The notes below the pieces were generated by a model. It was not told the origin of the DNA, made no database searches, and was given only the letters and a program-made list of their open reading frames with translations. From the NCBI GenBank assembly GCA_000004695.1, contig CM000152.2, positions 4,640,001 through 4,704,000 on the forward strand: a stretch of 64,000 nt of DNA. Reading direction: 5' to 3'. Origin of the DNA: Dictyostelium discoideum (taxonomy: Eukaryota). The translations under genes were made by a program, and so were the position numbers. Below, piece by piece: positions 37,792-43,134 of the stretch. Within the stretch, counting starts at the first letter, position 1. Every line of letters starts with the position of its first letter.

Positions 37792-40700
37792 TTATTTGTT
37801 TTTGTTTTTGCTTATCATACCAATAGCTAAAAGAGTACCAAAAAACAATAAATTCTTGACTATGCCATTATTATTTATTTCAGTTAATGTATTACTATAA
37901 GGTTGAGATGAAACAATTGAAGATCTTGAATTTAAAATTCTTTGAGGTAATTTAAGTGTAATATGATTTGGTATATCTCGAGGTATTATATGATCATATG
38001 AGTCTTTTATTTCTAATTTTAAAAGAGAATTTGGAATTGATTCTTTTTCTAAAGGATGAACTGTATTGTAAAGTTCAAGAGTTTCAATACCTTCTGGTAA
38101 GACTTTACCATCCAAAGGATGTTTAAATCCATCATAAAGAGATATTTTTTTAACAGTTGATGGTATTGAACCAATTTCTAAAGGTTCTTTAAATGCGTGT
38201 AGATAAAGTTCTGTAACACTTGATGGAATAACACCATTTGATAATTTTTGATTAAAATCATCATAAATGAAAATGGTTTTAATTGATGATGGAATACATG
38301 TTGAATCTAAAGGTTCTTCCACTTTATGTAAACTTAAAGTTTCAACGCCATAGGGAATGACGCCACCTTTAAGTGAATGATTATATCCATCAATTGATAT
38401 TCCAACTACTGTCGGTGGGATTGAACCAACTTTTAATGGATATAAAATAAATTTTAAATCAAGGTATTTTAATTCACTAGAAAGTATACCATTATTAATT
38501 TCTTGGTTGAATCCATCTTCCAATGTAAGATTACTAACAGAGGGGGGAATTGAACCATCCATCAGTTCACTTTGAATTTCTGATATTGAAAGATATTTAA
38601 CACCATTGGTAATGAAGCCAGGTTGAAGTGATAGGTTAAAACCAGCTTTAAGTGATAATGAAAAAACAGTTGATGGAATTGCGCCCAATTCAAAATCAGA
38701 TTTAATACGATATAGAGAAAGTCTGTTGACAGTATTTGGAATTATACCTTTAGTTATTGGGTAATTAAATCCATCATGAATTGTTAAACTTTCAACTGAT
38801 GATGGTATTGTTTTTCTAGTTAATGGTTTTTTAATATTATAAAAATTATGTAAACCTTGAATGGCATTATCAGAATGAATATAATATGATTTTGAATCAA
38901 AAAGTATAACATAATCTTGATCAACAATTGGAAGTTCTTTAAGTTTAACATTAAATAATTTTAAATTTACAGAATTTCTATCACCTTGAAAAATGATTTT
39001 ATTTCGTCGATTAGCTTTTAATGCTTCCCATGCCCAGTCATGATATCGATCACTATTAATTTCTTTTAAATCTTTACAATCATCAATATTAATTGAAAGA
39101 ATATTTGGTAAATTAAATGTAATTTCACAAACTTGATAAATTGAAACTGCTTCTAAATATTTTAAATTTTCAAATTTAAATTTTAATTTACTACCTAAAT
39201 TTCTTGAATTTGAAATATCTAATTTTTCTAAATTTCCAAAACTTGATAATGAATTGAAAATACTATTATACTTTATTGAAGAATTTAAATTAATTTCATT
39301 TAAATTTGGCGCTAAAATATCAAATTCATTTAAATTTTTACAATTTGATGCTAAAAGAGTAATTAAATTTGGACAATTTAATTTTAATGAATATAGTTCT
39401 TCACAACCACAAACATTTAAAATTTGCAATGAAGGTAATGATAATTGAACTCTTATCATACCAATAAAACCACAAATGAAATTTAAATTTTTACAATTTG
39501 AAAAATTGATTTCATTTAAATTATTAAAATTTGGTGACATAATTGTAGAAAGCTCAAGCAATAATTGACTATTTCTAATGAAAATACTTGTCAAATTACT
39601 TCTTTCCTTAATAGATTGGAATAATAGTTTTTGTTTTTCATTTGTCTTCTTTAAAAAGTTTGTTTTTTTTAAATAATTTTCAAAATGAAAATCTGAAATT
39701 TCATTTAAATTACCTGATTCAATACTTTTAATAATATTTTTAATTTCACTATATTTATTTTTCAATTTTTTCAATTCTCTTAATGCGAAATCTGGCCCAT
39801 AATCTGCACTCCATAATTCATTTTGAATTTCGGATCCTTTTGGAATATCAATTGAATCTAATAATAATGCTGATGGATTTGATGACTTTGTTAAAATTTC
39901 TGTTCTATGTTTATTATCTTTATATTTAATATTATTAAATTTATTATATCTATCAATAATTGATAAATTTTCATCATTAATTAATGGTTTAATTTTTGAT
40001 GCTACCAATGGTTCTAATTTTTCATATAATTGAAAATGAGTTATTGGTTTATTATTATTTTCATTTAAATGATGTTTTAAACGATTTAATTTTGAATAAA
40101 GTAATTTCATCATATTTGAACTAAATGCTACACCAATGATAGTTTCTTTATTTTCTTTTAATTTTTCACGAGTTTCATTAAAATGAAGTAAAGATAATAT
40201 ATGAAAAGTATCCATTTGTTGTAACCAGTCTGAACAAAGCATATCAATATCTAAATTATTTATTGAATCAATTACATCTTGATGAACAAAATCGTTCATT
40301 TGATTAAATAATAATATTACAGTTGAAACTTTACAAGATGATGATTTAAATAAACCAGATTTAATTGGCTTTGAAATTGGTGGCATAAATGATTGATCAT
40401 TATCAATTGAATAGATTTTTGAATCTAATAAGTGATTTGAAATTATAAAATTTCCAAGATTTCCATCACCATTATTCGTTAACATTGATAATATTAATTG
40501 TTTTGAAATATTTGATGAATCAATTTCGTTGATTATTTCTGGTTCTTTCTCTAATATATCAAATAATGTTTCACCAAAAACATTTTGAATTAATAAAACT
40601 GCTATATCACCATCAATTGATGCTAATTCACAACATGGTATACATCCACCACCTCCACCATCTTGAGGGAATAATAATTCTGATAGTTTAAAAACTGAAA

Positions 40701-43134
40701 AATCTGTACCTGGAAATTGTGGTGAAAATTTAAAATGAATACAATTACCATAGTCATCACTAATTGATGGCACTGGTCTTCTACCATATTTATTTGGTTT
40801 CTTTGGTGTTTTACCATCTTCTTCAAATAATAATTTTTCATATGATTTCAATAATATCCTTCTCCTACCACTAATAACTGTTTTTAAAATTTTACATCCA
40901 TTATTATTATTATTATTATTATTATTATTATTATTATTATTATTATTATTATTATTATTATTATTATTATTATTATTATAATTATTATTATTATTATTAT
41001 TATTATTATTATTATTCTCATCATCACCATTTGCTAAAGGTAATAACTGATTTAAAGATATACACCAAGCTATATTTGGATTTGTATGAAATAAAGTTTC
41101 TAAAAATGGTTTAAATCTAATTTTTTTAGAATGAGATAAACTAGAATAATAATTTGAAATTTTTGTTGAATCAAAGTTTTTGCCTGCACCTAAATCAATT
41201 AAATGTCTAAATAATTTGAATTTTTTTTGATCTGCTACTAAATCTAAAGCTGTTAAATGATTATGTTCAATATTTACATCAATATTTAATTTTTTAATTA
41301 AGTAATCTATAAATTCAATTGAATTTGAAACATTTAATCTAATGATTAAATGAAGTATTGGTTCGCCATCAACACTATAATTAAAACTATTATTTAATGT
41401 TATTTCAATGAATTTAACAATAAGATGAAACGATGATGGTGATGATAAATTTAAAACTTTTTGTAAAATTAATTGATATGATTTATAAAATGTTTCATTT
41501 AATTCCATATCAGTATTTAAAGTTTTATTTAATTTTACTATGGTTTCCACCCAATTCATTAAATCTTTATCAGATTTAAAATCATTTAATTCTGAACCTT
41601 TTATTAATTCTTTAATAGTTTCAATTATTGATAAATCAACCCCTTCATTATTTTTAGGAGTGCCTCTAATTTCTTGTAATAACTTTTTAATATGAGTTTC
41701 ATTTAAATGTTTAACTTTTTGAAACATTTCCTCTATTGAAAGTCTTTTTTGCTCGAAATATAATGATTCCATTTGATCTAATGGATGATTAGTTTCCAAT
41801 AATAACAAACCCTGATAATAATAATATGTTGTTGGTAATATTTCCTTAAATAATCGATAATATGTAATTGATTTATTATAACTATTATTATTATCATCTT
41901 TATCACTTTTTAAAATTTCAATAATTGTTTTAAATCTATTTAACATTTTTAAAACCCAACCTTTTTTAAATTTAATTGGTAATTGTAAACTTTCATTTGT
42001 TCTTAAAATTTCATCAAATATATTTAAACATGAAAATTCAATAAATTTTTCATATTTAATACTTTCTTGATAAATTTGATTTAACCAATTTAAAATAAAT
42101 ATATTTGGTTGATGTTGAATGAATTGATTTATAATATTTTCATTTACAACTTTTGACATTCTTGATTTAAATGTAAACAATATATTTTTAAAATTTATAT
42201 ATGTTTTACCATTACTTGCAGAGTTATTTAATTCATCAAATTCCATACATTCATCATTATCAATTCCAATGATTTTATTTATATTATTTTCAATAAATAT
42301 ATTATCACCTTTATAGTCAGTTGTCATTAATAAAAGACTTGATAAAATATGTGAACAATAACTTTCATCATCTAATAACTGAATTTCATTATTATAATTA
42401 ATTTTATTCTCTAAAAATGAATCTAAACTTTTACCTCTAACTAATAATGAACATTGAATGAATATATTCTCTTCTTGTATTATATTTGGTGGTAAATTAT
42501 TTATAACACTCAATTCAGTTGGTGATATAAAACTTGATGATTGTTTATTATTCAATGGATAAAGATTATAATAAAGTTGAAAAACTGCATTCTCTTTTGC
42601 TGGTCTAAGTAATCTAGATCCAATATCAATCTTACAAAATATGTTATTATTAATTATTGAACCAATTGATGAACCTTTATTCTTTTTTATAAATCTATTT
42701 GATTCTATATCAAATGATATTATTTTATAAAATAAATCAATTGTATTGATTTCTCTTTGTTTTAATTCTAAATTTGCTATTAATGGATTTTGATTATTAT
42801 TATTATTTAATATTGGTAATTTTGATAATTTATTTATAAATAATTTTAATTTTAATTTTGATTCTAAATTTTCTTCATTCTATAAAAATAAAAAACAATC
42901 AAAAAAGGTAAAAAATAAAAATAAAAAATAAAAAAAATATTTGGGAAAATGATTAGTTTCACTTTTTATTTGTTTTTTATAAAAATATAATTTTTTTTTT
43001 TTTTTTTTTTTTTTTTTTTTTACCTTTTTGTTTGTTTTTTCTGACAATATTTTTTTTTTTTTTTTTAATAAAATTTTATTTATAAAATAGAAAATGATTA
43101 CAAAAAATATCGAAACCAAAAAATAATAAATCAT
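37792..43134 (-). CDS. Very large (about 1.73 kaa) protein with ankyrin repeats, leucine-rich repeats and C-terminal FNIP repeats; main exon 37792..42879, putative 5' exon 43024..43134
   Basis: The listed ORF 37792..42555 starts at a TTG. The frame is open upstream to an in-frame TAG at 42880-42882 that doubles as acceptor ..ttttatag. A putative exon 1 (MIYYFLVSIFFVIIFYFINKILLKKKKKILSEKTNKK, hydrophobic) ends at a GTAAAA donor. Domains: ANK-like (ILHLIIRLNVSNSIEFIDYLIKKLNIDVNIEHNHLTALDLVADQKKFKLFRHLIDLGAG); LRR (LQILNVCGCEELYSLKLNCPNLITLLASNCKNLNEFDILAPNLNEINLN); at least 8 FNIP repeats (DGFNYPITKGIIPNTVNRLSL, DGFNQEINNGILSSELKYLDL, YDDFNQKLSNGVIPSSVTELYL, ...); and a polyN from (AAT)n. Confidence 0.6.
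40903..41010. repeat. (ATT)n microsatellite coding for polyN in the FNIP/LRR gene
   Basis: A trinucleotide run with one interruption (ataatt at about 40978). Confidence 0.9.

Follow-up and report, generated by a model that had tools for sequence, protein, structure and literature searches.

Kinases of the type II phosphatidylinositol 4-kinase (PI4KII) fold write the phosphoinositide identity of membranes, and intracellular bacteria subvert this phosphoinositide code with atypical lipid kinases, for example OpiA/LegA5, MavQ and LepB. We report here a gene of Dictyostelium discoideum whose product invites comparison with these enzymes. It lies on the minus strand of a 64,000-nucleotide (nt) stretch of DNA (positions 4,640,001 to 4,704,000 of contig CM000152.2, assembly GCA_000004695.1), which we call the window and to which all coordinates below refer, and its main exon runs from 37792 to 42879. 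The original prediction for this locus was an ankyrin/leucine-rich repeat (LRR)/FNIP-repeat protein with one odd central domain. Judged from its sequence, the family to which the protein belongs is defined by two homologous kinase domains rather than by its repeats, and our search of the literature found no description of this two-kinase family.

Three of the described systems closest to it are introduced here. In PI4KIIalpha, the catalytic loop comprises residues 308-315, residues 344-364 make up the activation loop, the K152A mutant is inactive, and three insertions are specific to the PI4KII group: I1 (157-190, with the CCPCC motif, lining the putative phosphatidylinositol pocket), I2 (217-255, rich in Arg and Lys) and I3 (318-340) (PMC3974213). 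In the Legionella pneumophila protein Lpg2322 (AnkK/LegA5), a structural atlas of the effectors of this species reports a lipid-kinase-like domain with a helical region after it, and the protein is a demonstrated phosphoinositide 3-kinase with a DHD motif (PMC11696984); a survey of the Legionella pan-kinome, in which OpiA/AnkK, MavQ and LepB each stand as an isolated family, mentions no tandem, ankyrin-spaced one (PMC9758233). Finally, the FNIP (or IP22, or FGxxFN) repeats are a subclass of LRR, defined crystallographically, that occurs in Dictyostelium and Polysphondylium, abundantly in giant viruses (CroV, Megavirus) and in brown algae, and in Polysphondylium these solenoids are often fused to kinase domains (PMC9525666); the idea that FNIP repeats are restricted to Amoebozoa, part of the original prediction, has to be abandoned.

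Two homologous kinase-like domains

The central domain (D2; residues 682-967, 39979..40836, minus strand) had been described as resembling neither repeat class and as possibly kinase-like, and both statements hold. What had escaped notice, apart from a hydrophobic C-terminal tail, is that the N-terminal 300 residues are a second copy of it (D1; residues about 60-359, 41803..42702, minus strand, recognised by its homology to D2). When residues 1-480 are compared with 661-1064 by BLASTP, 262 residues align, with an identity of 21% (E 3e-4); a hidden Markov model (HMM) made from the D2 of other proteins only finds the window D1 at 5.7e-26, and one made from their D1 only finds the window D2 at 3.6e-40. 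With its G-loop KGSSIGS and the motifs D188-Y-K-G-D-N193 and I-D207-N-D209, D1 retains the ATP-binding Lys (K83), the helix Glu (E96), the catalytic-loop D188 and N193 and the metal-binding D207. The corresponding landmarks of D2 are G699, K717, D805-G-N-L-G-N810, I-D826-N-D828 and W885; K717, D805, N810 and D826 are retained, and the acidic residue of the helix is D726, that is, Asp in place of Glu.

A family profile built from the two copies of the window protein and both copies of a paralogue (P0001) was searched exhaustively against 1.84 billion representative proteins. It matched 917 of them with E<=1e-3, of which 551 reach <=1e-10 and 122 reach <=1e-30; these representatives stand for clusters at 50% identity, and 917 clusters is a minimum. 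Exactly two copies of the domain are present in 129 of the 152 proteins scanned, typically spaced by about 600-700 residues. The columns kept at 87-100% in both types of domain are the Gly in the loop before the first strand, [YH]-F-K, P-G-x-E, D-x-K-x-D-N, I-D-N-D-x-A-F and a W-L pair. A scan of D1 and D2 with NCBIfam found nothing, and no Pfam or NCBIfam model rises above threshold on either domain.

AlphaFold, given a 45-sequence alignment headed by the window D2, models this domain as a bilobal kinase fold with a predicted local distance difference test score (pLDDT) of 93.5 and a predicted template modelling score (pTM) of 0.92. The top five Foldseek matches of the model are all PI4KIIalpha/beta (E 5.6e-6 to 2.3e-5), of which PDB entries 4pla, 4hnd and 4wtv are the nearest solved structures and whose motif pattern, TDRGNDN / IDNGLAF, is matched by D2. 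Alignment of the family profile to the PI4KIIalpha catalytic domain by hhalign (E 0.0049; the PI4KIIalpha sequence used is identical to 4hnd_A except for the engineered SSPSS) places the invariant D on D308, the N on N313, the Asp of IDND on D346 and AF-x-P on AFP. The Pfam PI3/PI4-kinase model PF00454 (gathering score 27.1 bits) does not match the window protein; its sub-threshold matches in three family members (the best at 24.2 bits, in P0015; the others at E 4.9e-4 and 3.4e-3) agree with a PI4KII-like fold. HMMER profile searches of the PDB sequences gave nothing significant, the in-register matches to PknA and DAPK1 at E 0.2-1 being suggestive at most, and the viral library BFVD returned generic kinase matches and no close viral homologue. 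We therefore regard it as firm that the modelled D2 has a PI3/PI4-kinase superfamily fold and that its nearest neighbour is type II PI4K.

The original prediction had suggested AlphaFold as a check and had named, as one outcome that would overturn it, a central region that is a mere low-complexity linker between repeat modules. This can practically be dismissed. The region does adjoin a tract of 39 Asn codons and contains a Gly5 run; set against this are the confident model just described, the conservation of the domain in the 917 clusters, bacteria included, and its recognition by the D1-only HMM.

One short motif of D2 deserves a word of its own. After the Gly5 run stands C-I-P-C-C (residues 746-750, 40632-40646), which recalls the CCPCC palmitoylation motif of PI4KIIalpha. 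We rejected this equation: the motif sits after the helix, in a position that is not I1-like, and the paralogues have CSPCC, SPYCE or SPFSE.

The proposed enzyme and the objections to it

We think that the gene probably encodes a two-headed PI4KII-like kinase of about 1,730 residues with an LRR/FNIP tail, acting at a membrane surface. Its core would consist of kinase domain 1, a helical region with ankyrin repeats, kinase domain 2 and a cysteine-type LRR block, to which Dictyostelium adds an FNIP-type LRR solenoid. Each head would be an active, ATP-dependent phosphotransferase, a partner would be selected or positioned by the surfaces of the ankyrin, LRR and FNIP modules, and the protein would be held at the membrane by its hydrophobic C-terminal tail and possibly also by an N-terminal anchor supplied by a first exon.

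Several points weigh against this explanation, and we prefer to gather them here. The window protein is only 13-14% identical to PI4KII, and D2 has none of the PI4KII insertions I1 (CCPCC), I2 and I3. There is no I1, because the Lys and the acidic residue of the helix are just 9 residues apart (8 residues lie between K717 and D726, and 12 between K83 and E96 in D1); nor is there an I2 or I3, the strands running directly from CELASIDGDIAVLLIQ and the catalytic loop being separated from IDND by 16 residues. Many relatives carry an insertion of 40-50 residues in D1 at the position of I2, which the window D1 does not have. Since the three insertions are missing and no existing model exceeds its threshold, the family is a separate, minimal branch next to PI4KII. 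Furthermore, the residue at position +2 of the catalytic loop (D-x-K-x-D-N) is a Lys in D1 and in most members, as in Ser/Thr protein kinases, whereas PI3/4-kinases have His. D2 alone is modelled confidently, the AlphaFold model of D1, made from 4 sequences, being unusable (pLDDT 41.8). Kinase activity is a prediction for every member of the family, the membrane anchoring of the window protein is one read from hydropathy, and the first exon is itself putative.

The closest structural neighbours of PI4KIIalpha are protein kinases (PMC3974213); because of this, and because the +2 Lys is protein kinase-like, the substrate is not readable from the fold. Our leading candidate, put forward tentatively, is a phosphoinositide or other membrane lipid; a protein substrate is possible, if somewhat less so, and some other ATP-dependent transfer reaction would be rather unexpected.

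The two substitutions in the window D2, Asp for the conserved Glu (found in 3% of D2 domains) and Asn for the catalytic-loop Lys (33%), also count against two active heads, and could be taken to mean that one or both are pseudokinases, so that the tandem domains would form a scaffold or allosteric module and the function would be carried by the LRR/FNIP part. There are precedents, as tandem kinase architectures frequently combine one active and one inactive domain, for example in the JAK-type kinase/pseudokinase pairs. We nevertheless find this unlikely: the Lys, the catalytic Asp and Asn and the Asp of the DND motif are kept in both window domains and in 87-100% of the family, and D2 is the part of the protein that differs least from its orthologue. 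The latter (P0002, KAM9959311.1, labelled D. discoideum; locus L002) is 92.8% identical to the main-exon protein; over 1,662 codons the differences number 65 synonymous and 119 non-synonymous, and the ratio of non-synonymous to synonymous differences is lowest in the D2 region. Two apparently competent heads are thus what we retain as the more plausible reading of these motifs.

First exon, membrane cues and repeat modules

The open reading frame (ORF) listed for this gene, 37792..42555 on the minus strand, remains open in the same frame for 324 nt more, to 42879, where it is bounded by an acceptor, TATAG, with TTTTTATAG immediately preceding the frame start; on this point the original prediction was right, and the ORF beginning MIYYFLVS (43134..42880) and the central peptide that it quoted are both found in the sequence as given. 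The main exon (37792..42879, minus strand) has 1,695 codons and a stop codon (37792-37794). An upstream exon is needed, because the first in-frame Met of the main exon is residue 185, inside D1 and past K83 and E96. We enumerated the junctions to the acceptor at 42880 only and in phase 0 only, and within 740 nt the sole ATG that can be joined in phase is the one at 43134, the best donor being AAG/GTAAAAAA at 43023. The result is a putative exon 1 of 37 codons (43024..43134, minus strand; MIYYFLVSIFFVIIFYFINKILLKKKKKILSEKTNKK), for a total of 1,732 codons, and a putative intron of 144 nt (42880..43023, minus strand; GTAAAA...TATAG) whose donor and acceptor are shared with the annotated model of the orthologue, where the intron has 136 nt. 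Exon 1 would encode a hydrophobic segment (Kyte-Doolittle mean 2.59 over 17 residues) followed by a Lys5 cluster.

How far can this exon be trusted? It could be that the segment is non-coding, the apparent anchor being a chance translation of T-rich intergenic DNA, and that the protein starts elsewhere, at another small exon, another acceptor or a non-ATG codon. Indeed, in a region where coding DNA has about 20-28% GC and spacers about 11-16%, a pattern typical of dictyostelid genomes, the segment sits in DNA with only about 11-16% GC, and its substitutions relative to the orthologue (5.4%) are nearly as frequent as those of its flanks (6.4-7.4%), with five of the six differences non-synonymous; this speaks against the exon and, with it, against the N-terminal anchor of our proposal. 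The annotation of locus L002 has instead a first exon of one codon, ATG/GT, at the identical donor, and a hydrophobic N-terminus is not seen in the Dictyostelium paralogues. However, the window has AAG where that annotated ATG stands, no alternative upstream ATG joins in phase to the acceptor at 42880, a start at residue 185 would cut into D1, and from about 43,500 the upstream neighbour gene occupies the opposite strand. Between the upstream ATG and the donor lie 111 nt that form an open frame of equal length in the window and in the orthologue, without a single indel event; the flanks, over 447 nt, have 12 such events. The hydrophobic part, encoded by the first 69 nt, shows one change, a synonymous one, and the five non-synonymous changes all fall in the Lys-rich remainder. 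A non-coding segment is therefore a possibility that we take seriously, without finding it the probable one; the hydrophobic exon 1 is likely real, and this suggestion of the original prediction is made plausible by its unique in-phase ATG and its open, indel-free counterpart in the orthologue, and is weakened by the composition and divergence of the segment and by the differing annotation.

At the other end of the protein, a segment of 17 residues, VKNLLFFGTLLAIGMIS (residues 1673-1689, 37813..37863, minus strand), is followed by KNKNK and the stop. Lying within the last 23 residues, with 6 residues after it, it is the most hydrophobic stretch that the main exon encodes (Kyte-Doolittle mean of 1.96 for the 17 residues), and it is conserved in the orthologue. 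This C-terminus looks like a tail anchor, a signal of the glycosylphosphatidylinositol (GPI) type being less likely.

If both ends were secretion signals, the protein would be exported, as the secreted kinases Fam20 and CotH are, with an N-terminal signal sequence, a C-terminal GPI-type signal and a kinase/LRR body that is lumenal or on the cell surface. We consider this improbable. An N-terminal hydrophobic run of 17-20 residues that is followed by Lys5 is what a signal anchor with a cytosolic body would have, the charged KNKNK at the C-terminus would be unusual for a GPI signal, and the protein contains an ankyrin-like module, ankyrin repeats being usually cytosolic. We thus keep to an anchored protein whose body would be cytosolic, because the Lys cluster follows the hydrophobic segment of exon 1. 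Hydrophobic, signal-like N-termini are also present in 19 of 151 family representatives (P0026, P0047, P0063 and P0073 among them), most of which have no source name; they parallel the putative exon 1, and one would not expect them in classical substrates of type IV secretion.

The repeats announced by the original prediction turned out to be of unequal standing: the FNIP repeats are well supported, while the ankyrin and LRR modules stay below threshold in the window protein and pass it at the same positions in relatives. In a Pfam scan of the whole protein FNIP is the sole significant family. The solenoid (residues 1351-1645, 37945..38829, minus strand) scores 137.9 bits with PF05725 (threshold 21; E 1.1e-40) over 10 matched stretches, and by eye we count about 13 units of 22 residues, where at least 8 had been announced; it also matches the giant-virus proteins CroV588 (6nyr, the crystal-structure sequence; E 1.5e-32) and Crov539 (E 4.4e-8). 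The ankyrin-like module between D1 and D2 (residues about 490-575, 41155..41412, minus strand) scores 21.9 bits with Ank_2 (cutoff 27.3) and 20.5 with Ank_3 (cutoff 22.3), and the threshold is passed at the equivalent position in P0003 (Ank_3, 23.8 bits) and P0016 (Ank_4, 39.4 bits). The cysteine-containing LRR-like block (residues about 1095-1290, 39010..39597, minus strand) shows a visible LxxLxxxxCxxL periodicity, its best LRR match being LRR_At1g61320 (24.6 bits against a cutoff of 26.9, E 2.1e-5); P0025 and P0021 reach the threshold at the equivalent place (28.1 against 27), and LRRs also follow D2 in the bacterial relatives. Between the ankyrin module and D2, Tandem Repeats Finder reports a perfect (AAT)39 tract encoding a poly-asparagine linker (40900..41016, minus strand). 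It is length-polymorphic, because in the orthologue the Asn run at this place is short, with 33 gap positions on the orthologue side of the alignment. A match to NPL4 (E 3e-4, residues about 1032-1114) falls in a helical linker rich in Lys and Asn and was dismissed as compositional.

Distribution of the family and comparison with known systems

The family is shared by social amoebae and protist-associated intracellular bacteria. All named eukaryotic members are from Dictyostelium (D. discoideum, D. cf. discoideum, D. purpureum, D. firmibasis and D. dimigraforme), D. purpureum having at least 7 paralogues among the proteins that we looked up. On the bacterial side, members occur in Candidatus Paracaedibacter/Odyssella acanthamoebae (for example WP_038465051.1; the contig has 2.47 Mb), Ca. 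Paracaedibacter symbiosus, and metagenome-assembled genomes (MAGs) of Paracaedibacteraceae, Holosporales, Dependentiae, Chlamydiae, Legionellales and other Gammaproteobacteria. When genome contigs were searched with an alignment of 7 bacterial sequences, one Paracaedibacteraceae MAG had 12 loci and a single gammaproteobacterial chromosome of 2.45 Mb had six. The order D1, ankyrin, D2, LRR is preserved in the bacterial proteins, and their C-terminal modules vary (RI-type LRRs, a patatin phospholipase, an F-box, 24 Sel1 repeats; P0025, P0016 and P0012 are among the carriers); the FNIP part is a lineage-specific addition to this shared core.

Compared with a non-dictyostelid set that includes unlabelled metagenomic proteins, the dictyostelid D1 is 26.7% identical to the D1 of that set, as against 20.5% to the dictyostelid D2, and the dictyostelid D2 is 32.5% identical to its D2. 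Because D1 is nearer to non-dictyostelid D1 than to dictyostelid D2, the duplication of the domain should be older than the sharing, and the module would have moved as a unit. A more speculative idea, which we find attractive and still doubtful, is that the core (D1, ankyrin, D2, LRR) is an undescribed family of active PI4KII-like kinases that was passed, as one complete module, between social amoebae and the bacteria living inside them. In the bacteria it would serve as an effector scaffold aimed at the host, with C-terminal modules that can be exchanged (patatin, F-box, Sel1, RI-type LRR), and the amoebae would have membrane-anchored FNIP versions, for example for sensing or countering such bacteria or for setting the phosphoinositide identity of the phagosome.

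On the side of the searches, a word-indexed protein search with the central domain, the N-terminal 615 residues or D1 returned only the paralogue P0001 or nothing, and missed the 93%-identical orthologue and the window protein itself, whereas the exhaustive search of representatives recovered both the orthologue and the window protein; word-indexed negatives are unreliable on AT-rich, low-complexity proteomes. The locus of that paralogue (Dictyostelium cf. discoideum, L001, 9962-13989) breaks up into several frames beyond about residue 700, and the annotation makes two genes of it; it is without FNIP repeats and ends in poly-Asn and a hydrophobic tail rich in Ser, Thr and Ala. It may be a decaying copy, or carry unrecognised introns.

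Among the neighbours of the gene, the ORF at 36319-37335 (minus strand) resembles a CobW/COG0523 GTPase and also adjoins the orthologue in L002. On the other side lie an unassigned, GC-richer ORF pair (43629-44046, plus strand), an intron-split gene for a CHY/RING zinc-finger-like protein (45430-46634, plus strand) and a NAC-beta/BTF3-like ORF (46750-47178, minus strand). Genes for tRNA or other RNAs were sought between 36 and 45 kb of the window and none was found, nor was any further copy of the kinase-like domain found elsewhere in the window.

What seems important to us is that so large a family, which comprises at least 917 clusters at the 50% identity level and whose two heads both look competent, is without a curated model, being a multigene family in Dictyostelium and present in many copies per genome in endosymbionts of amoebae. 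If its members are active, a missing branch would be added next to type II PI4K, Dictyostelium would offer a tractable model with easy knock-outs and localisation, and dozens of candidate effectors would be flagged in Paracaedibacter, Dependentiae, Chlamydiae and Legionellales. For a set of Dictyostelium proteins now known as "FNIP repeat proteins", annotation as enzymes would moreover be more fitting.

How, then, does the window protein stand next to the known systems? It differs from PI4KII in having two tandem copies of the domain, an ankyrin spacer and an LRR tail. OpiA/LegA5(AnkK) and MavQ have a single kinase domain instead of two (the comparison with OpiA/LegA5 is by literature description only), and the match to MavQ is much weaker than that to PI4KII. 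Atypical protein kinases, namely the actin-fragmin kinase of Physarum, CotH, Fam20 and CtkA, also count among the closest known systems. With the FNIP proteins known from Dictyostelium and from giant viruses (CroV588, Crov539) the protein shares a C-terminal part of 300 residues made of bona fide FNIP repeats, and what sets it apart from the described FNIP-kinase fusions is its kinase part, a tandem PI4KII-like pair in place of a canonical Pkinase domain.

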